Counted from the stretch's first letter, positions 3,341 through 34,614 are shown. The stretch is 35,111 nt of DNA from an archaeon (GCA_038046645.1 JBBSVU010000011.1:7778-42888); one strand, 5' to 3'. The notes: generated by a model from the letters alone, not told the origin. Numbers and translations are program-made.

Positions 3341-3489
3341 CTTAATTATCTATTTAAATATTATTACATAGTTCTCTATATACTATTGCCAAATGTTTCT
3401 TTTAGGCCTTAAAGAAATAGTTTTCTTTTGGATTCCAGAGTTTTCTTTTGGACTCTAAAAGACTTTTCTTTTCTAACGAAAAGGATTTT

Positions 3490-3563
3490 GGGCGTGTAGC
3501 TCAGTCTGGTAGAGCAATGGTCTTATACGCCATCGGTCAGCGGTTCAAATCCGCTCATGCCCA
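3490..3563 (+). tRNA. tRNA-Ile, anticodon UAU
   Basis: Cloverleaf: acceptor GGGCGTG/CATGCCC, discriminator A; D stem GCTC/GAGC; anticodon stem ATGGT/GCCAT with loop CT-TAT-AC; T arm AGCGG-TTCAAAT-CCGCT; no encoded CCA, no intron. Confidence 0.92.
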
Positions 3564-3571
3564 AACCAAGC

Positions 3572-3600
3572 CTTTCTTTTCTTTAAAAAAGAAAAGAAAG
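3572..3600. terminator. 13-bp hairpin downstream of tRNA-Ile(UAU)
   Basis: CTTTCTTTTCTTT-aaa-AAAGAAAAGAAAG. Confidence 0.45.
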
Positions 3601-3649
3601 TCTAGGTATTATCCCAAGAAAAGAAACTAAAAATAAAAAACGATGTAAT

Positions 3650-4093
3650 ATGGCTAGAAGACCTTTAAGTTTTGGAAGACGCAGGGTTGTAAAAAGTTTA
3701 AAAAGCCCTACAATTCCGCAACTAAAGCTGCCTAAAACATTATTTGGAAAAGTATTCCCAAGGCCTTTGGAATTGCCTTTTGCGAGAAAAGGAGAACCAA
3801 ATGAAGGAACCTTGCAACATTTGGCACAGTGTAAGGCAGAATTTGAAAGGGCAAGAGACAAAAATGATTTTAGGGAAATGCATTTTTGGAAAGGCCGTTT
3901 TGATATTTCAATCAAGAGATTTTTGGGGAATGTGCCAGAAGGTTTTGGGACTGAAGCCTTTGAAAGTTATTGTAGAACTCAGGTTCGTAGTGCTTCTATC
4001 CAGTCTGATGTTGCTGAGTCAAGGGAATGGGAAGATTTAAGGAATCTTTCTGAGGAATACCGAAAGCAGTTTTTGTTAAAAAAGAAGAATTAG
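3650..4093 (+). CDS. Hypothetical basic protein
   Basis: 147-aa ORF, R/K/P-rich N-terminus, no recognisable domain. Confidence 0.7.
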   Translation: MARRPLSFGRRRVVKSLKSPTIPQLKLPKTLFGKVFPRPLELPFARKGEPNEGTLQHLAQCKAEFERARDKNDFREMHFWKGRFDISIKRFLGNVPEGFGTEAFESYCRTQVRSASIQSDVAESREWEDLRNLSEEYRKQFLLKKKN

Positions 4094-4115
4094 CTAATAT
4101 TATTTTTGATGTTTT

Positions 4116-4361
4116 ATGCCAAATCCAAGAATTCCTAGGAGAACAGGCACTAAGCCTAAGAGAAGAGAAACATTAATCTCAAAAATAAGCTCTCCAGATA
4201 CTCCTGAATTTTGGGAAAAAGGGGCAAGTAAGTTGGCAGAAAAAGGCTTGACCGAAGCTGCTGCTGCAAGCAGAGCTATAGCAGAAAAATTAAGAAGTCA
4301 AGGAGAAAACCGTGGAGTAAAATTTAATGCCTTGAAAATAAGGAGAAAACCAAAATCTTAA
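4116..4361 (+). CDS. Hypothetical small basic protein
   Basis: 81-aa ORF filling the gap to ileS; starts MPNPRIPRR. Confidence 0.65.
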   Translation: MPNPRIPRRTGTKPKRRETLISKISSPDTPEFWEKGASKLAEKGLTEAAAASRAIAEKLRSQGENRGVKFNALKIRRKPKS

Positions 4362-4403
4362 TGATTGGGTTATTAATATTAAAAAAATATTTTTGTGATT
4401 TTT

Positions 4404-7271
4404 ATGACAGGAACACTGCAGGAATACACGCTTGAAAAAGAAAAAGAGATACTTGAATTCTGGAAAAAGAATAAAATTCCGGAAAAGGTTGAAGAGCTGT
4501 CTTCCAAAAACAAGAAAACGTTCTATTTCATGGACGGTCCTCCATATGCAACAGGCCATATACATATGGGCACTGCTTTAAACAAAATTCTGAAGGATGT
4601 TGCTATACGTTCAAAAAGAATGCAAGGCCAAAATGTTTTCTGCAGGGCAGGATATGATACACACGGATTGCCGATTGAGCACAAGGTTGAGAAGGAATTA
4701 GGCATAAAGAATAAGCAGGAAATTGAAGAATATGGTGTGCAGAAATTTGTTGATGCCTGCAGGAAATTTGCAACAGAGCATATAGACACAATGAATGCTG
4801 AATTCTTAAATTTAGGCGCTTGGCTAGATTTCAAAAACCCTTATCTAACACTTACAAATGAATATATTGAAGCAATCTGGTGGACATTCAAAAAAGCAGA
4901 GGAAAAAGGCCTTTTATTCTTAGGAAAATATCCTATTCATGCATGCCCAAGATGTGCAACTGCTGTCGCATATAATGAAATCGAATACATTAAGCAGACA
5001 GACACAGCGGTTTATGTCAAATTCCCTGTGAAAGGAAAAGAAAATACTTTTTTATTAATCTGGACCACTACGCCATGGACGTTAATTGATAATGCTGGTG
5101 TAATGATTCACCCAAAATATGAGTATGCAGAAGTAAAGATGAGCAATGGCGAAAAATGGATTCTTGCAAAAGAGCTTGTTGAACCAATAATGAAGATTCT
5201 GGAAGCAGGTTATGCGATTGAGAAAATTTATGTTGGAAAGGAATTGGAAGGCTGGACATATGAAAATCCTTTGTCAAAGAATATAAAGATTCCAAAAGAA
5301 GAATTGAAAGAGGCCTACAGGGTTGTTCTCTCAGATAGGTATGTTACTTTGGAAGAAGGAACTGGTTTAGTGCATGTTGGTTCAGGCCATGGAAAAGAAG
5401 ACTATGATGTTGCTGTAAAAACAGGGCTGCCGATAATTTGCACAATCGGTTTGGATGGAAAAATGGATCAGAGAGCAGGGAAATATGCAAATGGAATAGC
5501 CAGAATAATTGACAAGGAAATTGTAAAGGATTTGGAAGAAATGGGAATGCTTATTTACAAGCACCATTATACGCATGATTATCCAGTATGCTGGCGTTGT
5601 AAAACTCCATTATTAATGATTTCATCTGAACAATGGTTCTTTAAGATTGAAGACATAAGAAATAAACTGATTGAAGAAAATAAAGGTGTTTATTGGGTTC
5701 CTGCCTGGATGAAAGACCGCATGAATAATTGGCTAGAATCTTTGGGAAATTGGCCTATCTCGAGGGAAAGATACTGGGGCACTCCTTTGCCTATTTGGGT
5801 TTGTGAGGATGAAAAATGCAAATCCCGCAAGGTTCTTGGTTCTGTTGAAGAATTGAAAAAAGAATCAGGATTGAAAGACATTAAAGATTTGCACAAGCCG
5901 TTTATTGATTCTGTTTTCCTGAAGTGCAAATGCGGAAGCAGGATGAAAAGAATCCCGCATGTGATGGATGTCTGGTTTGATTCCGGCGTAAGTTCCTGGG
6001 GCGCTTTGGATTACCCAAAAAGAAAGGATTTGTTTGAAAAATTCTGGCCTGCTGATTTGAATATTGAAGGCACAGATCAAGTAAGGGGCTGGTGGAATTC
6101 GGAAATAATTACCTCAATGATATGCTTTGACAAAAAACCGTTCAAGGCAATTGCTGTGCATGGCATGGTCTTAGATATTGGCAAGAAAAAGATGTCAAAA
6201 AGCCTTGGCAATATTATACAGCCGAGTGAGGTTATTGAAAAATATAACCGTGATTACCTTAGGTATTATTTAGTTAAGTATTCAAAAGGCGAGGATTTAA
6301 CATTTGACTGGGAAATTTTCAAGGATATAAAAAGATTTTTCAATATTCTCTGGAATAGCATAAACTTTGCCTCAATTTACCTTGATTTGGAATTCACTGA
6401 AAAATTGCCAAAGAAATTAATGCCAGAAGACCGCTGGATTCTCAGCAGGTTAAATTCATTAATTCTAGAGACAGAAAAAAATTATAATAATTATACTTAT
6501 TACCAGATAATTTCAGCAGTAGAAAGCTTTGTGCTTGATGATTTCAGCAGAACCTACATTAAGCTCATAAGGGACAGGACTTCTTCTGACAAAGAAAATG
6601 TAAGCATTATGTTCAACCATATTGTTTCTGCACTTCTGAGGCTGCTTGCGCCTGTTGCACCGCACATAACAGAGTATGTCTACCAGGGATATGGAAAAAA
6701 AGCAAAAGGCCATAAGGAAAGCATTCATTTGTACAATCTTCCTGTTGCGGATAAATCCTTGATTGATGAAAATCTCGATAAGGAAATGAATCTTGTAAGA
6801 GAAATTTCCCAAAATGTTTTAAGCATGAGGAATGAGAATAATTTGCGTTTAAGATGGGTTTTGAAATCATTAGCAATTGAAAGCAATGATTCATTAATCC
6901 CAAACCTGAAAGATGTTCTGGCTAGCATGACTAATGTGAAAAAGGTTTATGAAGTAAAAACAAAGCCAGCAGGAAATTTCATCATGAAGGAACTTCCCAT
7001 GGCTAAAATTTATCTTGATAAGGATGCTGACGCTTCTTTGAAGGAAGAATGGGAACTGCGTGAACTGATAAGGAAGATACAGGACAAAAGGTCTGATTTG
7101 AAATTAAACCCAAATGATACTGTAAAGCTTTTGATAAGCTGCGATGATGCAAAATTCCTGGATAAATTCAAAAAAGACATTGAAAAAGAAACCAGTTCAA
7201 AAATTACGCTAAAAAATGGCCAGCTTGAAAAGTTGCTGGAAAGGTCATTCTATTTTTCAATTGAAAAATAA
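4404..7271 (+). CDS. ileS: Isoleucine--tRNA ligase
   Basis: DGPPYATGHIHMGT (HIGH equivalent), GYDTHGLPIE, WTTTPWT, ISRERYWGTP, DVWFDSG, EGTDQVRGW, KMSKS; likely start ATG 4404. Confidence 0.97.
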   Translation: MTGTLQEYTLEKEKEILEFWKKNKIPEKVEELSSKNKKTFYFMDGPPYATGHIHMGTALNKILKDVAIRSKRMQGQNVFCRAGYDTHGLPIEHKVEKELGIKNKQEIEEYGVQKFVDACRKFATEHIDTMNAEFLNLGAWLDFKNPYLTLTNEYIEAIWWTFKKAEEKGLLFLGKYPIHACPRCATAVAYNEIEYIKQTDTAVYVKFPVKGKENTFLLIWTTTPWTLIDNAGVMIHPKYEYAEVKMSNGEKWILAKELVEPIMKILEAGYAIEKIYVGKELEGWTYENPLSKNIKIPKEELKEAYRVVLSDRYVTLEEGTGLVHVGSGHGKEDYDVAVKTGLPIICTIGLDGKMDQRAGKYANGIARIIDKEIVKDLEEMGMLIYKHHYTHDYPVCWRCKTPLLMISSEQWFFKIEDIRNKLIEENKGVYWVPAWMKDRMNNWLESLGNWPISRERYWGTPLPIWVCEDEKCKSRKVLGSVEELKKESGLKDIKDLHKPFIDSVFLKCKCGSRMKRIPHVMDVWFDSGVSSWGALDYPKRKDLFEKFWPADLNIEGTDQVRGWWNSEIITSMICFDKKPFKAIAVHGMVLDIGKKKMSKSLGNIIQPSEVIEKYNRDYLRYYLVKYSKGEDLTFDWEIFKDIKRFFNILWNSINFASIYLDLEFTEKLPKKLMPEDRWILSRLNSLILETEKNYNNYTYYQIISAVESFVLDDFSRTYIKLIRDRTSSDKENVSIMFNHIVSALLRLLAPVAPHITEYVYQGYGKKAKGHKESIHLYNLPVADKSLIDENLDKEMNLVREISQNVLSMRNENNLRLRWVLKSLAIESNDSLIPNLKDVLASMTNVKKVYEVKTKPAGNFIMKELPMAKIYLDKDADASLKEEWELRELIRKIQDKRSDLKLNPNDTVKLLISCDDAKFLDKFKKDIEKETSSKITLKNGQLEKLLERSFYFSIEK

Positions 7272-7330: not shown

Positions 7331-7338
7331 AATGCTGT

Positions 7339-15150: not shown

Positions 15151-15165
15151 AAATTTTCAATTAGT

Positions 15166-22103: not shown

Positions 22104-22127
22104 TCTTTTTCAATAAATTAATTTTGG

Positions 22128-22827: not shown

Positions 22828-22857
22828 TTAGGAATTTACTTAATGCTAACTAGCAGA

Positions 22858-23826
22858 TTATTGAAACGCAGTAGGGTGCTTGAAAAAAGCCCTTGCATAC
22901 ATTGCTTCTGCCTTTATTCCTGCAAATGCCTTTGCCCTATTTGCTACTTTTGCAGCATATGCTTTTCCTGCCTGCCTTTTCTCTTTTTTAGTGAAATATC
23001 CTGTAAGCCCTTTGTTGTAAGAACCTCTTGCTGCTTGCAATTGATTGTCATATCCTACAATGCCACGTTTAGCAGCCATATTCATTAAATATCTTAAGTA
23101 GCCAATGCCTGCATCAAGATTGCATAAAGGATCAAATGTATTCCACTTTCTATCATTTGAAAATCTTCTTAAGCCTAACCGCATTATCTCTTCTTCAGCC
23201 AAAGGGGTAATCTGCATTAACCCTAAATCATTGTTTCTGCCAACAGCTTTTTCATTAAAAGTGCTTTCCTGCATTATTTGCCCCAACACATCTTCAGGCT
23301 TAATGCCATGCGCTGCAGCAAATTCAGAAGCAATGAATTGCAATACTAATATTCTTTCAGCAGAAACTTTTGCTTTCCTGTCTCTTGGTGCTTTTGTTTG
23401 TGCAAGCAGTCTTTCATATGCCGGAATTCTGCCTTCTATATCTTCTGGCCTAATATTGCTCAAAGGTTTATATTTTAATTTCGGCAGTTTGATTCTCTTA
23501 AATTCTTCTTTTGCTTTGCGTGCAGCTTCCTTGCTATTTCTAAATACTTCTTTGCGCTCAATTTGATTTTGCATTCTTAGCTTTCTGCTAGAAACAGTGT
23601 TTCCTTGATCAGTAAATCTGCCTTGTTTAGCTGCATTGTTTGCATTTCCTGAATTTATTGCAGCAGTTGTTTGTGCCTGCCTTGCTTCAGGGGTTAATGC
23701 CTTGCCAATAAAATAACCCGCAGGAAGCATTGCAGCAGCACCTATTGCCCCTACAAGCGCTATTCTTCTAAGTTTTCTTGAATGTCTTAGTGCTTCTATC
23801 AAACTAGGTCTTCTTCTTGTCGGCAT
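22858..23826 (-). CDS. Membrane-anchored lytic transglycosylase (SLT/GH23 domain)
   Basis: IMQESTF (catalytic Glu), GLMQI, FDPxxNLDAGIGYL, SYNKG; basic N-terminus followed by a hydrophobic helix. Confidence 0.9.
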   Translation of the reverse strand: MPTRRRPSLIEALRHSRKLRRIALVGAIGAAAMLPAGYFIGKALTPEARQAQTTAAINSGNANNAAKQGRFTDQGNTVSSRKLRMQNQIERKEVFRNSKEAARKAKEEFKRIKLPKLKYKPLSNIRPEDIEGRIPAYERLLAQTKAPRDRKAKVSAERILVLQFIASEFAAAHGIKPEDVLGQIMQESTFNEKAVGRNNDLGLMQITPLAEEEIMRLGLRRFSNDRKWNTFDPLCNLDAGIGYLRYLMNMAAKRGIVGYDNQLQAARGSYNKGLTGYFTKKEKRQAGKAYAAKVANRAKAFAGIKAEAMYARAFFKHPTAFQ

Positions 23827-23910
23827 AAATTATTTTTTACAGAAAGTGTTTTAACCAGCTTTATTAGCTTTAAAATCAGATTTTGAAGATTGAAACCGAA
23901 AGGTATATAA

Positions 23911-23960
23911 ATATCATGATATATTATGATAGTATATGACTAATCATGACATCGCTGTCA
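23911..23960. promoter_or_regulatory. Operator-like array: four ATGA(T/C) at exact 10-bp period
   Basis: ATATCATGAT ATATTATGAT AGTATATGAC TAATCATGAC directly after TATA-like TATATAAA; 12-bp palindrome at 23911-23922. Confidence 0.55.
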
Positions 23961-24463
23961 GTGGCAAAATGAATAATGAACAATTGTCAGAACTCCTTAA
24001 AAAGGTTGCTCCGCAGTACAGCGAGCTTTCCCTGGATGTCTCTGATGTTGCGAAATTTGCCAATGATCCTGTATTTTTGGCTATGCTGATGTTCCAGCTC
24101 ACAAAAGAGAGGGAAAGAACAAACCAGTTGCTTGAGAGGCTGGAAGAGAAGTTTGACAAAATAATGCTCATACTTAAAACAAAGGGAATAGAGTCTTCCA
24201 CTCTAAACACACAGAACACACAGCAGAGTTTTGAAGTCCTGCCGGAACAGGATGAAAAAATTTTGCATTTAGCAGAACTAAAAAAAAGAATAACCTGTGA
24301 AGAGGTCCAAGTAGAGTTAGGCTACAAGGGTCATAATGGTGCTTCACAGCGTTTAAATAAGCTTATGAAGGAGGGACATTTGAAGAAGGTTAAAGCAGGA
24401 AGAAAAGTCTATTTTGTTCTTGCTTGTGATGCTGATTCTACCGAGAATCAAATCCCCCAATAA
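23936..24463 (+). CDS. Coiled-coil plus C-terminal winged-helix protein
   Basis: ERERTNQLLERLEEKFDKI coil; QDEKIL...ITCEEVQVELGY...ASQRLNKLMKEGHLKKVKAGRKVYF wHTH pattern; start may be ATG 23969. Confidence 0.8.
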   Translation: MTNHDIAVSGKMNNEQLSELLKKVAPQYSELSLDVSDVAKFANDPVFLAMLMFQLTKERERTNQLLERLEEKFDKIMLILKTKGIESSTLNTQNTQQSFEVLPEQDEKILHLAELKKRITCEEVQVELGYKGHNGASQRLNKLMKEGHLKKVKAGRKVYFVLACDADSTENQIPQ

Positions 24464-24708
24464 CCTTCCACTCCCAACCAACAAATGTCCCTTCCTCCTT
24501 TGCCTTAACCCCTTTTCTTTCTCTTTAATCTATTTTTTTGAAATTAATATTAATTATTTTGAAAGAGAAAGAAAATTCGTTAACGGTCAAAAGAAAGAGA
24601 AAACTAATCTAAAAAATTTAATTTTTGCAGCCTTACGTCAAGAACAAGAAATAAAATAAAAATAAGAAAGGGGCTTTTAACCCCAAGGTCTGCTAATGAT
24701 GTAACTAT

Positions 24709-25074
24709 TTACTTAGCTGCATCAACAGTTTTACCCATTACGTAGATAGCCTTCAAAGCCAAGATTATGGCTGCTGGGGCTACGAACACTACAATCTGGT
24801 TTATTATGCCCTGTAGATAAGTTCCTAATGGATTAAGAACCGCATCTAATGGCAATAATGTAACGTTCCCTACTGACATTAAAGCTATTGTGGCTACTAA
24901 AAATGGGATTAATTCTTTATCGGATACATTCAGGAATCCTACGATTAAACCTAGGACTACTAACAAAAGGGTTACATACCCCATATACCCTGCTACTAAA
25001 GAACCTCCGACTGCTGCTACTATTGCTAATAGCACACCTAAAATAAAGGCTATACTTCCTAACTGTTCACTCAC
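24709..25074 (-). CDS. Small 4-TM membrane protein
   Basis: Four hydrophobic segments; strong GGAGGTG RBS, GTG start. Confidence 0.8.
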   Translation of the reverse strand: MSEQLGSIAFILGVLLAIVAAVGGSLVAGYMGYVTLLLVVLGLIVGFLNVSDKELIPFLVATIALMSVGNVTLLPLDAVLNPLGTYLQGIINQIVVFVAPAAIILALKAIYVMGKTVDAAK

Positions 25075-25198
25075 AGTTACACCTCCATGTATACTTTTAA
25101 TAATAATTAACCATCTATTTAAAGCTATCTGTCTATGCTTTTTTCGACTATTGACTACATTTGCTATATATTATATATTGTAAAAGTAACTGCTTAAA

Positions 25199-25759
25199 TT
25201 AGATTTTTGGGTTAATCTGCTTTCTTGTTTCTGGCTTTGAATAATCAAATGTATCCTGTTTTTTGAGTATAAAATGGCATTCCTTTTCGTTATTCAATGA
25301 GCATTTTGTCTCAACACAATCAATGTCATCATCAAACACATTTGAAAAAATAGCTGCTAACATTCCTCTTATTATATGGTCTGCATTCTCAGTTGGGGTT
25401 TTTATGATTGCAGTAAAAGGATTGTCAATTAATGCAACAATTGCTTGTTTTTCTTTATGATTTACATTTATTACCTGCAGCAGCCCCCAGCCTGAATAAG
25501 AAAGATATTCAATCCAGAATGACAGTAATTCTTCCTTGTTTCTGAATTCAATCTGCGAACTTTTCTTTATTTGTACTTTTATATTTTCTTTTATATCATA
25601 GTAAAGCTTTCTGCAGAATTCCTCATCCTTAGAGGCAATCAACGAGGCAAAAACAGCCAAAGGGCTTATTATGAATGGTTCATTTGCCATATAAAAATTA
25701 TTGTGGATAAATTTCAGATTGTTTGTAAAAATAAATTTATCAAAGAATCTATTCAGCAT
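25199..25759 (-). CDS. V4R (4-vinyl reductase) domain protein
   Basis: SGWG, RGMLAAIFS, CVETKC...ECHF. Confidence 0.85.
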   Translation of the reverse strand: MLNRFFDKFIFTNNLKFIHNNFYMANEPFIISPLAVFASLIASKDEEFCRKLYYDIKENIKVQIKKSSQIEFRNKEELLSFWIEYLSYSGWGLLQVINVNHKEKQAIVALIDNPFTAIIKTPTENADHIIRGMLAAIFSNVFDDDIDCVETKCSLNNEKECHFILKKQDTFDYSKPETRKQINPKI

Positions 25760-26030
25760 TTTGATTCCCCTTCAAAATTTGGTGTATGGTTCTGTATTTT
25801 TCAACATCAATCGGCCAGACAATTAGTGAATTCCCAACCCTTTTGCTTAACAATAAATGTTTTTCAATAAGTTTTTTCAGGTAATAAGAATATTTTGTTG
25901 AGGCTTTTCTCTTCTCTTCCCTTGATTTTGTATTCTCTTTCATGTGCTCTGCAATCTCCAAAGCAGAAATAGGCCAATATTCTTTAATTATTTCAAGAAT
26001 AACAGTTTCTCTATCAATTATCGCTGGCAT
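25749..26030 (-). CDS. Winged-helix DNA-binding protein
   Basis: ILEIIKEYWPISALEIA...YYLKKLIEKHLLLSKRVGN; overlaps V4R gene start. Confidence 0.75.
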   Translation of the reverse strand: MPAIIDRETVILEIIKEYWPISALEIAEHMKENTKSREEKRKASTKYSYYLKKLIEKHLLLSKRVGNSLIVWPIDVEKYRTIHQILKGNQNAE

Positions 26031-26099
26031 GCCAATATCATATATACCTTAATCTAACTTATATTTAAATATTTGCCAGAAATAGTCTGGCATGCCAGA
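26025..26099. promoter_or_regulatory. Repeated palindromic operator TGGCATGCCA flanking a TATA box
   Basis: 26025-26034 (over start codon); TCTGGCATGCCAGA 26086-26099; half-site TGCCAGA 26074-26080; ATATTTAAATAT 26061-26072. Confidence 0.6.
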
Positions 26100-26179
26100 T
26101 TTTAGGATTTGTAATTGCCTATTTAGGTGATTTGAACTTAAGTAAAATAAAAAACAGTTAGATAGGGCTTTTCTTTAGT

Positions 26180-26668
26180 TTATTCTTTTACTAAGGGTTC
26201 TTCATATTCTTGACCATGTGCGATTCCCAAGTAAAATCTTCTTTTTATTTTGTATTCTTTTGCAATCCTGTCAAACAATTCAGGTGCTTTTTTCCTTTGA
26301 AGCCCAAAATATCTAGGGCCTTTCCCATCTTGGCTTCTTACCTCAAAAACTAGTTCATCATATGTGCTTTCAGAAATAAGTTTGCCAAAAGTAACTGCTA
26401 AATTAGCTACTTTTACTAGGTCTTCTTTTCTCACTCTTAACACAGCGCGTATTTTTTTCCCAACCTCTGTGTTTGCTGGAAGTTCTATTGGTGTACTTTG
26501 GTTAAACCTATTTCTATAATCCGAATAAGTAATTTTATGCCCTTCGGAATAAGTTCCAAACCTGTTTCTGCTTAAAACCCTCTTAATCAAGCTTCTTTTT
26601 GCAGGCCCTTTATTCTCGCCCCTTGGCTTTTGTACTGGTTTTCTTGCAACAGGTTTTTTTATAGGCAT
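26180..26668 (-). CDS. Hypothetical basic protein
   Basis: Starts MPIKKPVARKPVQKPR; AGGTGG RBS. Confidence 0.75.
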   Translation of the reverse strand: MPIKKPVARKPVQKPRGENKGPAKRSLIKRVLSRNRFGTYSEGHKITYSDYRNRFNQSTPIELPANTEVGKKIRAVLRVRKEDLVKVANLAVTFGKLISESTYDELVFEVRSQDGKGPRYFGLQRKKAPELFDRIAKEYKIKRRFYLGIAHGQEYEEPLVKE

Positions 26669-26775
26669 TCAATTCCACCTTTTGTCTAATTCTAACTATA
26701 ATTATGACTATGCGGATTTAACTTAATAAATCTATGCAGTATGTAAAAAAATAATTATTCGCAAATATTGCTTTT

Positions 26776-27213
26776 TCACATTTCCTCAAGCACAATCATT
26801 GAAACTGTTTTGTCAATGCCGTCAATGCTTCTCAAATCTTTTGTGATAAAAGTATCCAAATCCCTTATGCTTGCACACCTTATTTTTACCAGCAAATCTG
26901 TCTGCCCTGTCACAATATCCACAGAATCCACGCAGCTGAATTTTTTTATGTGCTTTGCAATCTCTTGCTGTGTAATTTTTCTCCCAGCAAGCTGCTGGTT
27001 GACAGTAACCATAATATATGCTGCCAACGCCAATCCTAATTTTTCATTATCTACTTGAATAGTATATTTCTTAATCAATTTTTCTTTATGCATCCTTTTG
27101 ATTCTGTTATGCACAGTTGTCAAGGGTATATGCGTTTTTTTGGAAATTTCCCTGTGCGATAAAGATGAATCTTCCTTCAATGCCCGTATAATTAACCTGT
27201 CTTTTTCATCCAT
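26776..27213 (-). CDS. Lrp/AsnC family transcriptional regulator
   Basis: MDEKDRLII...TTVHNRIKRM...IKKYT HTH; VTGQTDLLVK RAM domain. Confidence 0.95.
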   Translation of the reverse strand: MDEKDRLIIRALKEDSSLSHREISKKTHIPLTTVHNRIKRMHKEKLIKKYTIQVDNEKLGLALAAYIMVTVNQQLAGRKITQQEIAKHIKKFSCVDSVDIVTGQTDLLVKIRCASIRDLDTFITKDLRSIDGIDKTVSMIVLEEM

Positions 27214-27252
27214 TCCTCTCACCCAATTATAGCTATTCTAATTATGCTAATA

Positions 27253-27319
27253 TGGAACAAATGTTCCAAAATTTATTTAAATATAGCTATTTTTAGTAAA
27301 ATTTTCCATTTTTTTGGAA
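27253..27319. promoter_or_regulatory. Putative Lrp operator palindromes between divergent regulator and asnA
   Basis: TGGAACA-aa-TGTTCCA 27253-27268; TTCCA...TGGAA 27304-27319. Confidence 0.5.
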
Positions 27320-27383
27320 TTATCTTTATATATGCGATTTAGTCTTATTTAGTATTAACTAAATCTAACTGAATGGTGAAAGC

Positions 27384-28304
27384 ATGGAAAGGGTAATACA
27401 GCATATTTTGAGCAAGGAAATGAAAGATGTTTTGACAGTCCAAACAACCGCATTGAAAGCAATCCATGATTATATGTGGAAGCATGATATATTGCAATTA
27501 ATGCCGGTTATGCTTTCCTCAGTAACAGACCCATTGTGCCACAGCGTATATGACTCATCAATATCCTATGGCGGGCAAAAGCTTGAACTAACAAAAAGCA
27601 TGATTTTGCACAAGCAATTATCAATGATGCGCGGTGATTTGAAAGGAATTTATATCATATCGCCGAACATCCGTCTTGAAAAAGAGCATTTGGGTGAAAC
27701 CGGAAGGCATCTGTTAGAATTTAGCCAGGTAGATATTGAACTAAGAGATGCAAAATACAAGGATTTTATGAGATTTACTGAAGGATTATATTCACATATC
27801 TTCAAATTTGTGAGAAAGGAATGCAAAGAAGAGCTTTCTGCTTTTGGAAGAAAAATCAAAGTCCCAAAAAAACCATTTAAGATTTATGAATCGGCAATGG
27901 AATTAAAGAAGGAATATGGCCCTTCCTTTGACCTAGAGCTTTCAAAAAAAGAAAAGGATTTGTTTTGGGTGATGGACCATTACCGTGAATTTTATGATAG
28001 GGAAGACCCTGTAACTAAGAGGCACGTGAATTATGATTTAATGTATCCTGAAGGTTTTGGTGAAGCACTGTCAGGAGGGGAAAGGGAAACAGACCATAAA
28101 ACAATACTCAGAAAAATGGGTGAAAGAAAAACCGATATCAGCAAATATAAGCCATATGTTGAAATCTCAAAAAGAGGCTTGTTGAAACCTACTGCTGGCG
28201 GCGGTTTTGGGGTAGAACGTTTAGTAAGATTCCTAACAGGAAAAAAACACATAAAGGATGTTTCATTATTCCCAAGGGTTCCAGGGGAAGAAATAATTGT
28301 TTAA
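27384..28304 (+). CDS. asnA: Archaeal asparagine synthetase A (AsnRS-like, lacking anticodon-binding domain)
   Basis: SSVTDPL, LTKSMILHKQ, SPNIRLE, RHLLEFSQVDIE, EALSGGERE, GGGFGVERL. Confidence 0.93.
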   Translation: MERVIQHILSKEMKDVLTVQTTALKAIHDYMWKHDILQLMPVMLSSVTDPLCHSVYDSSISYGGQKLELTKSMILHKQLSMMRGDLKGIYIISPNIRLEKEHLGETGRHLLEFSQVDIELRDAKYKDFMRFTEGLYSHIFKFVRKECKEELSAFGRKIKVPKKPFKIYESAMELKKEYGPSFDLELSKKEKDLFWVMDHYREFYDREDPVTKRHVNYDLMYPEGFGEALSGGERETDHKTILRKMGERKTDISKYKPYVEISKRGLLKPTAGGGFGVERLVRFLTGKKHIKDVSLFPRVPGEEIIV

Positions 28305-28341
28305 ATCCTTCCACTTCTTTTATTCTGTTATTGGTGATATT

Positions 28342-28860
28342 TTGGCTGTCAAAAAAATACTGCTGTTAGGCAACAAAATTTTGCGTAAAAAAAGCAAAAA
28401 AGTTTCTCTGCAGCAAATCGATAAAAAACTTATTGCTGATTTGAAAGACACCCTGCTTGATTTTAGGAAAAAAGAAGGCTTAGGCAGGGGAATAGCTGCT
28501 CCGCAAATAGGCATAACCAAAAGAATGCTCTGTATAATCACCAAAGAATTTTCAGGAATTATGATTAATCCGAAAATTGTGAAAAAAAGCAAGAAAAAAA
28601 TTAAAGTTTGGGACAGCTGCTTTAGCTTAAAAGCCGCGATTTTCTGCAAGGTTTTAAGACATAAGGAAATTGAGGTTGAATTTTTTGATGAAAAAGGAAA
28701 AAAGCAGAAAATTGCCGCAAAGGATGCCTTGTCTGAATTATTGCAGCATGAAATCGACCATTTGGGCGGAATAATGTGCACCGACTTAATCAAATCAACA
28801 AAAGACATCATCATGCGAGAGGAATGGGAAAAGAAGGGCAAACCGTTTTTGGCTGATTGA
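28342..28860 (+). CDS. def: Peptide deformylase-like protein
   Basis: GRGIAAPQIG, variant DSCFS, QHEIDHL; GGTGA RBS before TTG 28342. Confidence 0.88.
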   Translation: MAVKKILLLGNKILRKKSKKVSLQQIDKKLIADLKDTLLDFRKKEGLGRGIAAPQIGITKRMLCIITKEFSGIMINPKIVKKSKKKIKVWDSCFSLKAAIFCKVLRHKEIEVEFFDEKGKKQKIAAKDALSELLQHEIDHLGGIMCTDLIKSTKDIIMREEWEKKGKPFLAD

Positions 28861-28944
28861 TTCCATTAATTTTTCACAAAACCTTTTTTGGTAAAATAGT
28901 TAAAAACAAAGGTTTTATATACTTTTCAGACAATTCATACTAGT

Positions 28945-29211
28945 GTGAATAATATGAATAAATTGAAAACAGTAGAAATAGGATCCAGAGGACAACTTGT
29001 GATACCCCAAGAATTTAGGAGAGATTTGGGAATAGAAGACAAAGAGACATTAGTTATAATTGAATCAAATAATCAACTTATAATATCAAAACAGCAGGAT
29101 GTAATGCAAAAGCTTCAGAACAAAGAACAGTATGAACTTCTTTCAGAAAAAGCGTTAGGCAAGGTTTGGAATAACAAAAAGGATGATGTCTGGGAAAAAT
29201 ATTTAAGGTGA
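28945..29211 (+). CDS. AbrB/MazE-family antitoxin
   Basis: IGSRGQLVIPQEFRRDLGI; stop overlaps toxin start (GTGA). Confidence 0.88.
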   Translation: MNNMNKLKTVEIGSRGQLVIPQEFRRDLGIEDKETLVIIESNNQLIISKQQDVMQKLQNKEQYELLSEKALGKVWNNKKDDVWEKYLR

Positions 29212-29546
29212 TTTCTGTGAAACAAAAAAGTGTCATTCTGACAAGATTTCCATTTACTAATCTTAGAGATTATAAAATAAGGCCGGCAGTTATAGTTTCT
29301 AATGAAAAATACAACAAAAGCCACAGCGATTTTATTATTTGCCCAATCACTACCAAACAAACTATGGCTGACTTCGAAATTCTCATAGATAAGGGAAATT
29401 TTTCAGGTTATCTTGAAGAAATAAGCTTTATCAGAACTGATGTTATTGCCACGATAGATAAAGAATTGAGCATTAAAGAAATTGGTCAAATATCTGAATC
29501 ATTATTTGAGAAATTATTAATTAAATTACAAAAAAATTGGCAATAA
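29208..29546 (+). CDS. PemK/MazF-family toxin
   Basis: FPFTN...KIRPAVIVSN...ICPITT. Confidence 0.9.
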   Translation: MISVKQKSVILTRFPFTNLRDYKIRPAVIVSNEKYNKSHSDFIICPITTKQTMADFEILIDKGNFSGYLEEISFIRTDVIATIDKELSIKEIGQISESLFEKLLIKLQKNWQ

Positions 29547-29618
29547 TAGCCAACTTTAGAATGATTAAGTAATTTAAATGAATTCTATTATATTAGAGTA
29601 AACTAATCAGGTATTTTT

Positions 29619-30911
29619 ATGGAACTCACAAAAATTGCAAGCATCTTTGAAAAAGCCAAAGGTTCTTTTTACACAAGAGGCTGGGTAAAAAGGAAAAGGG
29701 AATTGAAAAATAAAATGTTTATCCTTTTGAGGGATGAAACAGATGAATTGCAATGCGTTCTTGACCGCGATAAGGCAGACAAAAAACTTGCAGATATTGT
29801 TGAGAAAGCAACTATGGAATCAAGTGTTGAATTAAAAGGCGCATTAAGAAAGGATGAAAGAGCACCAAATGGCTTTGAATTGGATATTGAAGATTTGAAA
29901 ATAGTCGGATTGGCTGACACATTCCCTATCGGCAGGGATTTAAGCGAGGAATTTTTGCTTGATGTCAGGCATTTGTGGATAAGAAGCTCAAAAATCTCAA
30001 ATGCATTGAAAGTAAGGGCAACTGTTTTTGAAGCATTTCGCGAATTCATGAAAGAAAATAATTTTACTGAAACTTCAGGCCCAATGTTTGTTTCAGGCTC
30101 TGTTGAAGGCGGCTCTACATTATTCAAAGTTCCTTATTTCGACAAAACTGTTTACCTTACACAAAGCTCCCAATTTTATATGGAAGTAATGATGTTTGCA
30201 TTGGGAAATTGTTATACAATAGCGCCAAGTTTTCGTGCTGAAAAATCAAGGACTCCTAGGCATTTAACCGAATTCTGGCATGCTGAGGCAGAGATGCCTT
30301 GGGCAGGTTTAGAGGATATAATTGATTTGGAAGAGCGCATGCTGAAACACATGGTTGAAAAAGTTGTAATTGACCGAGAAAAAGAATTAATTGGGTTAGG
30401 AAGGGATCCAAAAACATTAGAGCCCAGCATAAAAAAGAAATATCACCGCATGACTTATGAGGAAGCGGTAAAAGAAATTTCAAAGAAATTTTCTTATGTT
30501 AAATCAGGCTATGATTTAGGTGAAAAAGAGGAAAGAGAATTTACTAAAGATTTGGACAGGCCAATAATTCTGACACATTACCCTACTTCATTAAAGCCAT
30601 TTTATCACAGGTTAGATCCAAAAGATCCAACGCATGTTTTGTGCAACGATATTCTTGCACCAGAAGGTTATGGTGAAATAATAGGATCAGGGGAAAGATG
30701 CTGGAATGCAAATGAATTAATTGATAGAATTAAAAAAGATAAATTGCCTTTAGAGCCTTATCAATGGTATATTGATTTACGAAGATTTGGTTCTGTACCA
30801 CATGCAGGCTTTGGCATGGGCTTGGAAAGATTTGCTGCCTGGCTTTGCAAAGCTCAAACAATTAGGGATGTTGTTCCTATTCCAAGGACTATTACAAGGA
30901 CTTATCCTTAA
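29619..30911 (+). CDS. asnS: Asparagine--tRNA ligase
   Basis: OB fold RGWV...LRD; EGGSTLF, YLTQSSQ, SFRAEKSRTPRHLTEFW, GEIIG, PHAGFGMGLER. Confidence 0.95.
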   Translation: MELTKIASIFEKAKGSFYTRGWVKRKRELKNKMFILLRDETDELQCVLDRDKADKKLADIVEKATMESSVELKGALRKDERAPNGFELDIEDLKIVGLADTFPIGRDLSEEFLLDVRHLWIRSSKISNALKVRATVFEAFREFMKENNFTETSGPMFVSGSVEGGSTLFKVPYFDKTVYLTQSSQFYMEVMMFALGNCYTIAPSFRAEKSRTPRHLTEFWHAEAEMPWAGLEDIIDLEERMLKHMVEKVVIDREKELIGLGRDPKTLEPSIKKKYHRMTYEEAVKEISKKFSYVKSGYDLGEKEEREFTKDLDRPIILTHYPTSLKPFYHRLDPKDPTHVLCNDILAPEGYGEIIGSGERCWNANELIDRIKKDKLPLEPYQWYIDLRRFGSVPHAGFGMGLERFAAWLCKAQTIRDVVPIPRTITRTYP

Positions 30912-30917
30912 ATTTAA

Positions 30918-31958
30918 TTATGGCATTCTTCTTGATGTTCTTGGCCTAACTGCCTTTATTGGAACAGCCCTTCTAGTTCTCGTAATTGTTTGCACTTTTA
31001 CAGGTTTATTTTTGAAAGCTTTATCTAAAGCGGCAGCCAATGCACTTGATATCTTCTTGAGTTGCATTACGGTTCCCTTGCCTTTTGCATATTCCCTATT
31101 ATCTGCAGAAGCCCAATCTTCAGTATAAGTATCATAAAATCTTGTTGCAGCTAACATAGTTCCTCTAAAAGAACTAATATTAGTAGGTCTAGCTCCAGCT
31201 GGTAAATGGTTTCTTAAATATGGGATAGTGAGATAACTATTCAATCTGTTTCTGACCGCAATTACTGCAAGCTCATCAATTCCAAATCTTCTTGCAATAG
31301 TCTGGGCCTTTGTTGCCCTAAAAACTTCCGCAGTTACTTTCATGAATAATTCTTTGTTTGCAATTTCTTGGCCATTATGGACAGATTCCCTAATAAAACC
31401 TATTAATGCTTCGTATCTTTGTTTTGGAGTAACTGCATTTTCCTGCCTTTTTTCCCTTGCTTTTCTTAAATCTTCAGAAGATATTGGAATAGGGCGCATT
31501 TTTAGCTTGCCATGGCTTTTTGGCTTTTGAGCATCATAAGTTACACCAGCTTCTTTTAGTGCTGTTGCTAATTCACCAGAGTGAACACCATTACTTTTAG
31601 CCAGTTCCATAACAGTTGATCCCCCTAATCCACCCTGCCTTTTTATTCTTGCTGCAAGATTTTCAAGTTTTAACCTATTCCTAAATTTTGGGTTTCTGGA
31701 AAGAAATGCATCAGCTAATTCTTTTGGAGATTTTTTTTCTGTTATTAGCCCATATAGCGGAAATGCTTCATGAAGTGCATCTAAAACACGTTTCTGCTCT
31801 TGGCCTAATTGTTGAGATAATGCTTGGCTGTGTGCAATATAATTAATTTCTGTAGCAGGCATTCTTTGCAAGTTTGCTTCAAGTAATCCTTGAACCTTTC
31901 TTATAAATTCATAAGTTATTACTGGTGCTCTTTTTTCTTGTGCCATATTTATTCCCAT
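30918..31958 (-). CDS. Hypothetical basic protein
   Basis: 346-aa ORF, R/K/P-rich C-terminus, no recognisable family; start may be 31946. Confidence 0.75.
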   Translation of the reverse strand: MGINMAQEKRAPVITYEFIRKVQGLLEANLQRMPATEINYIAHSQALSQQLGQEQKRVLDALHEAFPLYGLITEKKSPKELADAFLSRNPKFRNRLKLENLAARIKRQGGLGGSTVMELAKSNGVHSGELATALKEAGVTYDAQKPKSHGKLKMRPIPISSEDLRKAREKRQENAVTPKQRYEALIGFIRESVHNGQEIANKELFMKVTAEVFRATKAQTIARRFGIDELAVIAVRNRLNSYLTIPYLRNHLPAGARPTNISSFRGTMLAATRFYDTYTEDWASADNREYAKGKGTVMQLKKISSALAAALDKAFKNKPVKVQTITRTRRAVPIKAVRPRTSRRMP

Positions 31959-32000
31959 ATTAGCTTGTAAAGCTTAATATGTGTTATTTATCTATTATAG

Positions 32001-33938
32001 TTATTTATCTGCAGGCTTATATTTAAGTATTTTATTTATTATTGATTCTCCAATCGCCTTAGGCATATCAACTGCTTTTGCCACACATTTTGCTTCTGCA
32101 GTGCCAGGGCTTTGGCAGCTATATTGCAGGAAGGGCCACATTGCCCAAGCAGGAATATATTTGCCAAATATTTGGTCTTTTGTGCAATCATCATCTGAAA
32201 AGCATTTTGGCGTAATGCATTGCCCATTAGAGCAAACATGCCCCAAAGCATCAGAACAATCATAGTGTTCTTTATTCTCCATTACTTGCATTTCCCCACA
32301 AAATGAATTCTTTGTGCCTGCAACATAACAAATTGAATATTGCAAATCCCCAAATACTGTATTACCGTTACAAGTAGGATTGACCCAAGATTGCGGGCAG
32401 TCAGCCATGCTGAAACATTCTACATCTTCAATCTCAGCTTTAACCTTGCAGCCTGCTTTATAATTTTCCTCATAGCACACTTCGTCAGGATCACAAGCTT
32501 CAATTTCTTTTTCTATAATTGATCCTTGGCATGACGAACCATATTCTCCTGGGTTCAAACAGGAATAATCAATGTGCTGTTGATAAACATTAGAGACATT
32601 AACCTCTTCACAGTATAAATTCCCATAATAATTATCCGCAGGACAATCGGCATCTGAATAGCATCCAACAGATTCACATTTATTCTCAATGCATTTTTCT
32701 CCTGCCCCGCAGTCTGCCTCAGTATTGCAAAATCCTTCTAGTAAGACACACTTTGAATCAATGCAATCATGGAAAGGCCCGCAATCATCCGAGAAAGCAC
32801 AAGCAGTTGCCTTGCATTTCCCAGTATCACAGACAGCATTTTCCCCGCAATCTGAATCCTTAGTGCATTTTGATGGCTGGCATTCCCCGACAATGCATGT
32901 TTCATCAATAGAACATTTGTCCATTAATTGCCCGCTTACAAAATCTACTGAGCAGTATGCTTGCACAGTACCTGCTTTTTCACAAGTATGTTTTGCAACA
33001 GTAGCATATGCATCGTTTTGATTGCAAAATTTCGTTCCAATAACATCCTCACAGTCAGAATCCTTGCTGCATGCAATATTTTTACATTCACCATTCTCAC
33101 AGGTTTCATCAGTTTTGCAGTTCTGCACTAATTCAGTATTGGCTGAATTTGAGCAATTGGCAAATATTGTCCCTGGGCTATTGCAAAAATAGTTTTTGGT
33201 TTGGTGGTAAACATTTCCATTTAAACAATAAGGCTCACCAATTACATCTGTCCCGCAGTCTGGATTTTTATTACAGGCAACAGATTTACATTGGCCATTA
33301 TCGCAGGCCTCATTTTGGGCACATTCTACTTTAAGTTTATCCTGGTTTGATGATGAACAAGAAGCATTTGCTGTCCCAGGATTATTGCATAGATATGTTT
33401 TAAATTGCTGGAAAACATCATTATTTGAGCAAAAAAGATTGCCAAAATAGTCATCAGTTCCACAATCAGCATTCTTTGTGCATGTGATTTGGATATTCTG
33501 GCATGAGCCATTGGAGCATGTTTGGTTTTGTGAGCATTCCTGCGTTAATTTAGTGTCTGTTGAGAATGTGCAATTTGCCAATGGAGTTCCAGGGTTTAAA
33601 CAAAGATAATTCTTAAATTGCTGGTAAACATTTCCGTTGTAACAATAAGGATCTGTTGCACTGTCAATTCCGCAGTCTGAGTTTTGGGTGCAAGCAAAAT
33701 CGCCGCTTGGGTAAAAATTACCTTTCTTATACTGGTTTGAATGAACATAGGCTTCGCTGTTCTTTTTGAACATTTCTTTATTTGAAATGATTTTATCCTT
33801 GGAATTATTTGAAGTAATCTTGTCCCTAAAATTTCTTGAAGAAAAAGAATTGTCTAATGCATATACTGAAATTATTGAAACTAATAATATAAATAATACA
33901 AATAGAACCGAATATTTGCTGCTTAATCTAAAACCCAT
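32001..33938 (-). CDS. Secreted cysteine-rich repeat protein
   Basis: Signal peptide; repeated C-x4-DC...C...NVYQ...YxCxNPGT..AxC units; AGGAGG RBS. Confidence 0.88.
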   Translation of the reverse strand: MGFRLSSKYSVLFVLFILLVSIISVYALDNSFSSRNFRDKITSNNSKDKIISNKEMFKKNSEAYVHSNQYKKGNFYPSGDFACTQNSDCGIDSATDPYCYNGNVYQQFKNYLCLNPGTPLANCTFSTDTKLTQECSQNQTCSNGSCQNIQITCTKNADCGTDDYFGNLFCSNNDVFQQFKTYLCNNPGTANASCSSSNQDKLKVECAQNEACDNGQCKSVACNKNPDCGTDVIGEPYCLNGNVYHQTKNYFCNSPGTIFANCSNSANTELVQNCKTDETCENGECKNIACSKDSDCEDVIGTKFCNQNDAYATVAKHTCEKAGTVQAYCSVDFVSGQLMDKCSIDETCIVGECQPSKCTKDSDCGENAVCDTGKCKATACAFSDDCGPFHDCIDSKCVLLEGFCNTEADCGAGEKCIENKCESVGCYSDADCPADNYYGNLYCEEVNVSNVYQQHIDYSCLNPGEYGSSCQGSIIEKEIEACDPDEVCYEENYKAGCKVKAEIEDVECFSMADCPQSWVNPTCNGNTVFGDLQYSICYVAGTKNSFCGEMQVMENKEHYDCSDALGHVCSNGQCITPKCFSDDDCTKDQIFGKYIPAWAMWPFLQYSCQSPGTAEAKCVAKAVDMPKAIGESIINKILKYKPADK

Positions 33939-34129
33939 ACTACCCCTCCTTTATAGTAATTTAATAAAGGGAAAAGGTTAATAATGTTATTTTAGTTGGG
34001 GTTAATTGCCAGAATTCGCATCTGCTTAGTTAGCAGTAAATTTTTTTTTCCTTTAGCAGTTTGATAGCAATTTTTTCTCTTTTGACCGTAAACGAAAAAG
34101 TTTTTTCTTTTCCATTTCAAGCGAAGCTT

Positions 34130-34418
34130 GAAAGGACCTGTAAAATTCTTTTGAATTTTACATGGTGAACCCAAGTCAATGTGTTAAACTTATATTAATA
34201 AATCTCTTCTAATATAAGCTATTTTATTATTAATACTTCTTTAACACATTGAAGGGCCTTTTCTTTTTTTAGGCTCTGTAGAAATGATATATAAAGCCCG
34301 AAATTTTCAGGAAAAATAAGCCTGAACTGAACTCTGCTTGGCAAAACAAGGAAAGCCAGTTTATAAGGCTGGATGATTTCTACAGCGCCCTTTTTTTAGG
34401 AAAAAAGAAAAGGGGCTT
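34130..34418. repeat. Cluster of nested inverted repeats
   Basis: TGTAAAATTC/GAATTTTACA; TCAATGTGTTAA/TTAACACATTGA; CTGTAGAAAT/ATTTCTACAG with outer CCTTTTCTTTTTT/AAAAAAGAAAAGG arms. Confidence 0.7.
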
Positions 34419-34421
34419 GTT

Positions 34422-34496
34422 TGGGCATGGGCGGATTTGAACCGCCGACCGCACGATTATCAGTCGTGTGCTCCAACCAGGCTGAGCTACACGCCC
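34422..34496 (-). tRNA. tRNA-Ile, anticodon GAU
   Basis: Acceptor GGGCGTG/CATGCCC+A; anticodon stem CACGA/TCGTG, loop CT-GAT-AA; T arm GGCGG-TTCAAAT-CCGCC. Confidence 0.96.
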
Positions 34497-34614
34497 AAAA
34501 TCCTTTTCTTTTGGGAAAAGAAAAGGCTTTTAGAACCCAAAAGAAAACTTTTCTTTAACCGTAAAAAGAATTTGGCAATTAATATAACACAACTGCAGGA
34601 TAATATTCAACCTT

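Follow-up and report, generated by a model that had tools for sequence, protein, structure and literature searches.

The window analysed here is a stretch of 35,111 nucleotides from the genome of a small groundwater archaeon (G000, contig C11:7778-42888), and it carries two isoleucine tRNA genes in opposite orientation, tRNA-Ile(UAU) at 3490-3563 (+) and tRNA-Ile(GAU) at 34422-34496 (-), which resemble each other more closely in their leaders than in their anticodon stems. We consider it likely, with a rough probability of 70%, that the two genes are old isoacceptors between which a young, genus-specific promoter-leader cassette, probably together with the outer arms of the tRNAs, was copied in the ancestor of the genus. 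As delimited from sequence comparison, this cassette extends over about 150 nt and comprises a TATA-like block, the block ATTGCCAAAT and a leader whose core consists of two pyrimidine tracts (Y1 and Y2) and a purine tract (R).

The host genome (1.17 Mb, 35% G+C, 25 contigs, 89% complete) has as its nearest named relatives, judged by isoleucyl-tRNA synthetase (IleRS), metagenome-assembled genomes labelled Candidatus Diapherotrites / Iainarchaeum. Its genus is sampled by two genomes, G000 itself and G001, and a further genome, G002, belongs to the same family. The UAU genes were compared over 30 best-match loci among 59 matching relatives of the order, and the GAU genes over 26 loci, 24 of them outside the genus. 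ARAGORN and Rfam both called three tRNA genes in the window, for Ile(UAU), Val(CAC) and Ile(GAU), and an Rfam search of the window at gathering thresholds returned nothing beyond these three.

When the 150-nt regions preceding the two isoleucine genes were aligned locally, the result was 46 identical positions in 51 ungapped columns and a score of 70, compared with a mean of 19.6 (standard deviation 3.3, maximum 37) for 500 dinucleotide shuffles. When the regions upstream of the 43 ARAGORN tRNA calls of G000 were compared with one another, leaving aside those that were short or held runs of N, the two Ile leaders proved to be each other's top non-self match, with a score of 68 where no other region exceeded 32. 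The shared blocks listed by the original prediction were all located in both loci: ATTGCCAAAT at 3385-3394 (UAU) and 34579-34570 (GAU), AGTTTTCTTTTGG, GAAAAGGATTTT, and CTAAAAG(A/C)CTTTTCTTTT, which has 2 matches in the window where 0.03 are expected by chance. Each leader also has one copy of the motif TCTAAAAGMCTTTTCTTT, and these two are its only occurrences in the window, for an expectation of 0.03. An additional copy of AGTTTTCTTTTGGA that had been remarked upon in the UAU leader (3419, 3439) is a 20-nt tandem duplication, and the acceptor stems are identical (14/14), with anticodon stems that differ but retain their pairing and one T-stem pair that covaries, just as had been described. 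The homology of the upstream regions is established and reaches the TATA-like promoter block. The proposed homology of both flanks thus held for the leader and only weakly for the trailers, the UAU gene being followed by a full antisense element (3572-3626) and the GAU gene by a degenerate hairpin only (about 34388-34416). Some copying between the isoacceptor loci, which had been offered as one explanation, is supported by these homologous non-coding flanks and by tRNA bodies that are alike at 53 of 58 positions outside the anticodon arm.

A different origin had been proposed for the anticodon arms, namely that one tRNA-Ile was recently duplicated with its flanks and that its anticodon stem was then rewritten. 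Acceptor stems that are identical, with T arms and leaders that nearly are, would suit such a history, for which a precedent has been proposed in Korarchaeum cryptofilum, where the part of the source consulted gives the GAU tRNA of the same genome as the best match of the UAU tRNA (PMC6000648). The 26 GAU and 30 UAU genes, however, align as two clean classes, with the arm WTGGT/CTTATAC/RCCAW in the UAU genes and CNCGA/CTGATAA/TCGNG in the GAU genes across the sampled genomes of the order. ATGGT/GCCAT and CACGA/TCGTG in the window are thus the conserved arms of their classes, which contradicts the rewriting. Eight columns are diagnostic of class (at least 75% in each class, genus excluded), six of them in the anticodon arm, where G000 and G001 both show the proper class state, and about eight class-specific positions would have had to be recreated exactly had one gene been derived from the other. 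Since each arm is conserved for its class across the order sample, the anticodon arms are older than the leader. The UAU locus is moreover syntenic in both G001 and G002, and the need for a UAU tRNA appears to be a standing one, as set out below, so that duplication followed by rewriting is very unlikely.

tRNA-Ile(UAU) was present in all 30 best-match loci of the relatives. The order of msc, tRNA-Ile(UAU) and ileS is held in G001 (89% and 94% amino-acid identity) and msc is held in G002, and by this synteny the UAU locus is orthologous across relatives. In the window ileS lies at 4395-7271 (+), 831 nt downstream of the tRNA (TIGR00392, 853 bits, cut-off 621), and it follows the tRNA directly on the same strand in 25 of the 30 loci, at distances of 6-893 nt; the two genes may be co-transcribed. 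In a separate collection of 80 IleRS loci, ARAGORN called tRNA-Ile(UAU) upstream of IleRS in 17, all within the records L146-L180, of which 14 are labelled Diapherotrites, Iainarchaeum or plain 'archaeon' and three (L150, L153 and L157) 'uncultured archaeon'; none of the loci among the 80 labelled Woese-, Pace- or Nanoarchaeota or bacteria had the tRNA in that position.

The enzyme TiaS (TiaS_FLD, PF08489) was found in none of 41 genomes of the order (G000-G040, the window's own genome included), while four archaeal controls were positive. This absence is consistent with a standing need for the UAU tRNA and argues further against a recently derived UAU gene. From their anticodons, the GAU tRNA is expected to read AUU and AUC and the UAU tRNA to read AUA, so the two are read as old and functionally distinct isoacceptors. 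The combination of a UAU tRNA with a lack of TiaS is the same pair of traits as reported, in the sections consulted, for ARMAN archaea (PMC3239211), and AUA decoding by tRNA-Ile(UAU) without TiaS or TilS is likewise described for Mycoplasma mobile (PMC3575796) and for Korarchaeum and Nanoarchaeum (PMC6000648). In contrast to those cases, the trait here is order-wide and the UAU gene is linked to ileS.

The core of the shared leader belongs to a repeat family of G000 that is built, in this order, of Y1, a spacer (about 11 nt), Y2, a loop of 3 nt and R. R is complementary to Y2 and pairs with it in a hairpin. Y1 mirrors Y2 and does not repeat it directly, and is therefore the parallel complement of R, as is required of a third strand of the pyrimidine (T.A-T / C+.G-C) motif. 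A scan of G000 returned 61 Y-loop-R hairpins with a stem of at least 8, 53 of them with a stem of at least 9, and in 42 of these 53 a mirror Y1 of at least 9 nt lay within 45 nt on one side (shuffled flanks: mean 0.9, maximum 5); on the opposite side the mirror match averaged 3.7 nt. In a direct-repeat control over the 53 hairpins, 35 had a longer mirror than direct match, 17 had matches of equal length and one had the longer match in the direct sense; this control is weak because the tracts are locally mirror-symmetric. Defining a copy by a Y1 of at least 8 nt and a spacer of 7-18 nt gave 43 copies in G000, and as these carry 29 distinct Y1 sequences the three tracts covary. The Y1 tracts consist of 434 T and 96 C in 530 nt (82% T), with isolated C only; CC dinucleotides are absent where 16 would be expected, which is consistent with the avoidance of adjacent protonated cytosines. 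In 39 of the 43 copies the loop of the hairpin has 3 nt, and the Y1-Y2 spacer measures 8-18 nt, with a mode of 11. One type of spacer, GGCAACYTASA, was searched for in 151 genomes of the order (66 genera), and its 41 matches were patchily distributed over 10 genomes and 5 genera; 39 of the 41 have mirror-symmetric 6-nt flanks, counted by eye, and the reversed pattern gave no match in the 151 genomes. Triplex symmetry is thereby established for the family, though not by the two Ile copies alone, and the copies would be capable of folding accordingly.

The placement of the copies is strictly polar with respect to tRNA genes. Immediately 5' of a tRNA there are eight, each in sense orientation and with R ending 4-6 nt before the gene, and immediately 3' there are eleven, each antisense. 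A further ten, nine antisense and one sense, lie in introns predicted by ARAGORN; in the copies read through individually, the hairpin end pointed towards the nearest exon. The remaining 14 have no ARAGORN tRNA within 150 nt, but two of them fall within an apparent intron-bearing tRNA-Arg(CCU) that the program did not recognise. This tRNA-Arg(CCU)-like gene (G000 C14:22560-22760) has an intron of about 140 nt with an antisense element beside the 5' exon and a sense element beside the 3' exon, and a tRNA-Trp on contig C5 looks alike. The leader architecture is also found before seven other tRNAs of G000. The family does not flank every tRNA, because tRNA-Val(CAC) at 15079-15150 (+) in the window (ARAGORN, Rfam) has a triplex-type element on neither side.

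Comparison of G000 with G001 pointed to rapid turnover. An element was present in both species at 29 of 43 anchored orthologous places, the anchors being 80-100% identical, and its code and spacer were often different; some anchors are doubtful, that of Glu(CUC) having matched the Glu(UUC) gene and those of Leu(CAA) and Phe mapping to one G001 element. This suggests that copies have been quickly replaced between the two species, and such gain, loss and replacement at orthologous places would be consistent with mobility or conversion. Two three-way coordinated changes were seen: relative to the Ile copies, the one before tRNA-Thr(CGU) of G001 shows a difference of CT in Y1, CT in Y2 and AG in R, and the Gln(CUG) trailer differs between the species by a single T.A-T to C.G-C change.

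Of the two Ile leaders, that of the GAU gene is the complete copy. Its element (34502-34547, minus strand, repeat scan) consists of a 9-nt Y1 TTTTCTTTT at 34547-34539, a 12-nt spacer GGGTTCTAAAAG at 34538-34527, Y2 at 34526-34516, the loop CCC and R AAAAGAAAAGG at 34512-34502, giving an 11-bp Y2/R stem, followed by the tail ATTTT (34501-34497); the distance from the end of R to the start of the tRNA is 4 nt by ARAGORN or 5 nt by Rfam (34496). Upstream lie ATTGCCAAAT at 34579-34570 and the TATA-like sequence GAATATTAT at 34608-34600 (together 34570-34608, minus strand). The UAU leader of G000 is a decayed copy, with the Y1 unit doubled, a TAAC loop and R reduced to 7 nt. A promoter-like block ATCTATTTAAATATTATTACATAGTT (3348-3373, +), in which the TATA-like box is 3350-3360, is followed about 25-30 nt downstream of that box by ATTGCCAAAT (3385-3394, +), a putative transcription start region, and then by a small distal pyrimidine/purine hairpin from a predicted RNA fold (GTTTCTTTT ... 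AAAGAAAT, 3395-3418, +). The 20-nt tandem duplication occupies 3419-3458 (+), with one Y1 tract TTTTCTTTT per unit (3421-3429 and 3441-3449), and the remainder of the leader (3450-3489, +) holds the spacer GGACTCTAAAAGA at 3450-3462, Y2 CTTTTCTTTTC at 3463-3473, the loop TAAC, the shortened R GAAAAGG at 3478-3484 and the tail ATTTT. The predicted RNA fold of 3385-3489 has an energy of -28.2 kcal/mol (z-score -3.3). In the G001 ortholog this leader has an intact 10-bp hairpin and lacks the duplication, the sequence being present there in a single copy.

These comparisons bracket the age of the cassette. It is present at both Ile genes in G000 and in G001 and at neither Ile gene of G002, and in both species the spacer is specific to the locus (GGACTCTAAAAGAC for UAU, GGGTTCTAAAAGCC for GAU); because these spacers were kept, the copying predates the divergence of G000 and G001 and no homogenisation has occurred since. 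Of 30 genomes, 2 have a Y-loop-R leader hairpin before the UAU gene, to which the degenerate copy of G000 can be added; before the GAU gene such a hairpin stands in 4 of 26. The promoter-like parts are distributed as follows: the TATA-like ATCTATTTAAATATTAYTRCATAGTT followed by ATTGCCAAAT precedes UAU in G000 and GAU in G001, the UAU gene of G001 has the TATA-like block without ATTGCCAAAT, and the GAU gene of G000 has a diverged block and then ATTGCCAAAT, so that the block 3348-3373 has its like before both genes of G001. A second, unrelated element has come to stand between the old element and the GAU gene in G001. The spacer of the Ile leaders (…TCTAAAAG.C) is unusual, being found in no other family copy of G000. 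Separately, another conserved leader hairpin was noticed before tRNA-Ile in relatives (L003, L021, L023, L024, L025 and L052), with an internal ...ATCGAG / GAAGAT... that resembles tandem sheared G.A pairs, as in a K-turn.

The tRNA bodies of this genus are unusually alike. Outside the anticodon arm the UAU and GAU genes are identical at 53 of 58 positions in G000, 51 in G001 and 41 in G002, and in 12 of the 13 genomes outside the genus with both genes, G002 among them, at 41-48, the exception being G019 with 53/58; among 210 cross-genome UAU/GAU pairs the mean identity was 0.78 (standard deviation 0.057) and 0.5% reached the G000 value. In the reading that we prefer, one Ile locus would have received the cassette from the other while G000 and G001 still shared an ancestor. 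This could have happened by gene conversion, the simplest route, or through the copying of a small segment, and the 5' halves of the tRNAs, which are identical, probably served as the seed. The copy probably also took parts of the acceptor stem, D-stem and T arm, and the class-specific centre of the tRNA, from D-loop to anticodon arm, would have stayed or been restored. Thereafter the copies would have evolved separately, the UAU copy of G000 gaining its 20-nt duplication and losing part of R. There is a hint that the direction was from UAU to GAU, as the lone diagnostic column on the 5' side of the D-loop has the UAU-type C in the GAU genes of this genus. The surroundings of the GAU gene have also changed: a divergent tRNA-Gln(UUG) lies within 1.5 kb of GAU in 15 of 26 loci, among them that of G002, where the two are 627 nt apart, but not in G000 or G001, and the flanks of GAU differ between these two.

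Several observations weigh against this reading or against parts of it. In G001 a member of this cassette subfamily, accompanied by a similar promoter-like block, precedes tRNA-Thr(CGU), and for that reason the cassette may be able to move alone, without conversion between Ile genes. The acceptor stems of G019 are identical although its leaders are unrelated, and GGGCGYG is common in both isoacceptor classes, so the likeness of the tRNA bodies could reflect a common constraint imposed by IleRS. The direction of copying depends on one diagnostic column. As to the fold, mirror symmetry is already present within the Ile-subfamily code TTTTCTTTT, and Y1 can also pair with the spacer CTAAAAG; folding accordingly predicts alternative hairpins, on which account the two Ile copies by themselves cannot separate a triplex from hairpins. 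For a closing helix that would join spacer and tail, a longest-helix test across the family gave no significant result (mean 3.26 compared with 3.16 when permuted, 478 of 2000 permutations being as high), and the position-specific pattern of spacer and tail (ACC/GGT, GCC/GGC, CAAG/CTTG) is visible by eye only.

The first of these points leads to the strongest competitor, in which a mobile cassette of the TAAAAG-spacer subfamily landed independently before each Ile gene and the likeness of the tRNA bodies is coincidence or IleRS constraint. The subfamily does precede tRNA-Thr(CGU) in G001 and not in G000, and elements evidently come and go, as the extra element at GAU and a 144-nt intron in the UAU gene of G001 illustrate. 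The often different code and spacer at the 29 of 43 shared places, the patchiness of the GGCAACYTASA type (10/151 genomes, 5/66 genera) and the identical acceptor stems of G019 without related leaders all fit such mobility. On the other hand, the leader part matches only the other Ile locus in G000, the tRNA bodies are within the top 0.5% of cross-genome likeness, and no transposase is linked to the family, the TnpB gene nearby being part of a separate multi-copy repeat that starts at 34718. We regard independent insertion as unlikely, though it deserves to be taken more seriously than any other alternative to copying between the Ile loci.

It had also been suggested that the shared leader is a functional Ile-tRNA element, for instance a dedicated cis-regulatory leader that couples the supply of tRNA-Ile to IleRS or isoleucine. 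Its presence at both Ile genes of two species with spacers conserved per locus, the similar leader hairpins at both Ile genes of G013 and the linkage of UAU to ileS speak for such a role. It is nonetheless missing from the Ile genes of G002 and of most relatives sampled (2/30 UAU, 4/26 GAU), is found before tRNA-Thr(CGU) in G001, shares its architecture with the leaders of seven other tRNAs, and in the G000 UAU copy is decaying, with R at 7 nt and Y1 duplicated. These observations make an isoleucine-specific function highly improbable. Conversely, the notion that the leader is a generic dispersed repeat, which would have undone the proposed relationship of the loci, is right for the architecture and wrong for the exact sequence, which in G000 occurs at the Ile genes only.

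The similarity might in principle have arisen by misassembly, through a repeat collapsed or misjoined near a contig end, as the contig ends about 600 nt away from the GAU locus, which adjoins the multi-copy TnpB repeat. Contigs from runs of two other studies nevertheless match the region with no differences (X5 over 34109-34798 and X7 over 34305-34787), and G001 holds both leader types with their locus-specific spacers, so that an artefact is hardly credible. Nor did the data bear out the idea that the repeats mediate a 31-kb inversion. Neither a joint nor a loose end was found at the GAU tRNA in the contigs of four DNA runs over 15112-35111, a weak test given that contigs drop rare variants, and the UAU gene has msc upstream and ileS downstream in both G000 and G001.

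The position of the TATA-like boxes, at each locus 25-30 nt ahead of ATTGCCAAAT, leads us to infer that the leader forms part of the transcript and is later cut off by RNase P. Of the 41 genomes of the order, 31 gave a match to RNase P RNA (RF00373), G001 and G002 among them, but none was obtained in the 89% complete G000, in which Rpp30 is present; as G001 and G002 have it, we read the missing match as incompleteness, the gene being probably unassembled or divergent. The matches in G001 (372 nt) and G002 (423 nt) are both longer than the 288-position model.

Intrastrand triplex motifs are known from bacteria, where G/C-rich examples have been described as PIT elements, BoxC and TMECO and sorted into the ITxF classes I-IV (Holder et al. 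2015, PMC4666352). According to the portions of that work consulted, these have three tracts per strand, formed by a hairpin and a Hoogsteen tract, and are dispersed, intergenic and multi-copy, as is the family here. In ITxF terms the element strand (Hoogsteen, pyrimidine, purine) would be of class IV and its complement of class II (PMC4666352), and the third tract of such motifs, a parallel complement (mirror) of the purine arm, is present in the same 42 of 53 hairpins, the UAU leader being degenerate. The Y1-Y2 spacer of 8-18 nt falls outside the loops of 1-6 nt that ITxF searched, and TMECO as presented there, with its enterobacterial consensus, is G/C-rich, of class II and short-looped, whereas the present family is 82% T and shows no likeness to the TMECO consensus (PMC4666352); unlike TMECO, its copies abut tRNA exon ends with fixed polarity. 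In the main text of that paper, as far as consulted, tRNA is unmentioned and archaea are named only as database content, and a literature search, which did not cover subscription journals, found no description of such triplex-type elements in archaea. The archaeal transposition of tRNA introns described by Fujishima and co-workers (cited in PMC3239211, seen in part) offers another parallel, with short related sequences recurring in introns and flanks and differing between close relatives as they do here; those cases of likeness between introns and split-tRNA leaders are defined, in that source, by bulge-helix-bulge motifs and sequence likeness, in contrast to the three-tract triplex symmetry of the present family.

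A further resemblance should also be considered. The MALAT1 and MEN-beta RNAs have a triple helix at the 3' end, upstream of a tRNA-like RNase P substrate. MALAT1 has the same order of pyrimidine, pyrimidine and purine tracts with the RNase P substrate directly next, and in all eight leader copies of G000 the purine tract likewise stands ahead of such a substrate, ending 4-6 nt before the tRNA. The MALAT1 triple helix, however, includes an ENE-type stem with a U-rich internal loop, and the arrangement here is a plain fold-back of Y1, Y2 and R without it. Cleavage by RNase P would place the purine tract at the 3' end of the upstream RNA, as in MALAT1, but with a residual tail of 4-6 nt, and the leader orientation is found in 8 of 43 copies plus the degenerate UAU copy. 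As most copies are oppositely oriented to the tRNA, a MALAT1-like arrangement cannot be the general role of the family.

Our best guess for the role of the element is that of a module, RNA or single-strand, which folds on itself, is passed from one tRNA exon flank to another and is tolerated or mildly useful there. We would give even odds to a self-folding flank module that spreads by conversion and confers little or mild benefit. A true RNA-level function in processing or stability seems only half as likely, and the same holds for a function at the DNA level, as a single-strand triplex during transcription or replication. A more specific proposal is speculative and, in our judgement, improbable: that in the pre-tRNAs of the two Ile and seven other genes the Y1-Y2-R cassette adopts a U.A-U / C+.G-C triple helix with 9-16 layers whose end lies 4-6 nt ahead of the RNase P site, and that the module is the raw material of long tRNA introns. 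If this were true, RNase P cleavage would free an upstream RNA with a 3' end locked by a triple helix, an archaeal counterpart of MALAT1/mascRNA, and spreading of the module by conversion between tRNA exon flanks would be a source of the long tRNA introns of this lineage.

Other features were recorded around the two genes. The UAU tRNA (Rfam RF00005, 70.6 bits; also ARAGORN) is followed by the antisense trailer element found by the repeat scan (3572-3626, minus strand: Y1 3626-3616, spacer 3615-3601, Y2 3600-3588, loop 3587-3585, R 3584-3572), with a predicted hairpin fold of -17.9 kcal/mol (z-score -5.1). In G001 the tRNA-Ile(UAU) (C57, about 17230-17540; L002 / L032) has its 144-nt intron after the anticodon, containing a pyrimidine/purine hairpin, and the G000 gene is intronless, so that the presence of the intron differs inside the genus. 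The sequence TGCCAAA lies at most 60 nt upstream of 5 of the 43 elements, compared with about 0.7 expected. The GAU tRNA (ARAGORN; Rfam 67.5 bits) is followed by the degenerate pyrimidine/purine trailer hairpin (34388-34416, minus strand; predicted fold -11.8 kcal/mol, z-score -2.4). Divergent from it, the 5' part of a TnpB-family gene (34718-35110, +; NF040570, E 7e-10, under the curated cut-off) runs to the contig end. Over the last depth bin (34455-35111) the depth of the contigs climbs about 4-5-fold, from about 10 to 35-55. Loose ends are present at 34718, where the DNA upstream of other copies is different; a multi-copy insertion sequence element probably broke the assembly at this end. 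A second conserved motif, (G)TTCAGGGGAAATCTACTCYYCC, was seen in the window at about 34640-34690 (-) and at G000 C6:8312, C6:27752, C6:121511, C17:26667 and C14:~33170, just upstream of the TATA-like boxes of protein genes. It often directly follows a triplex-type element, with a related GCGGGAAATCTGC hairpin close by, and one gene behind it has a start that, judged by eye, resembles RadA.

The apparent paradox of flanks that seem better conserved than an anticodon stem is resolved if the isoacceptors are old and their flanks were recently copied, and it would follow that promoter-leader cassettes are exchangeable between the tRNA genes of small archaeal genomes. The case is a datable one within a repeat family whose three-way covariation is hard to explain without a triple helix, and the family supplies short natural sequences for biophysical tests of long T.A-T-rich triplexes. 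Inside a single genus, copies have been gained, lost and replaced at tRNA 5' ends, 3' ends and introns, which bears on the origin of the introns and leaders of archaeal tRNA genes.

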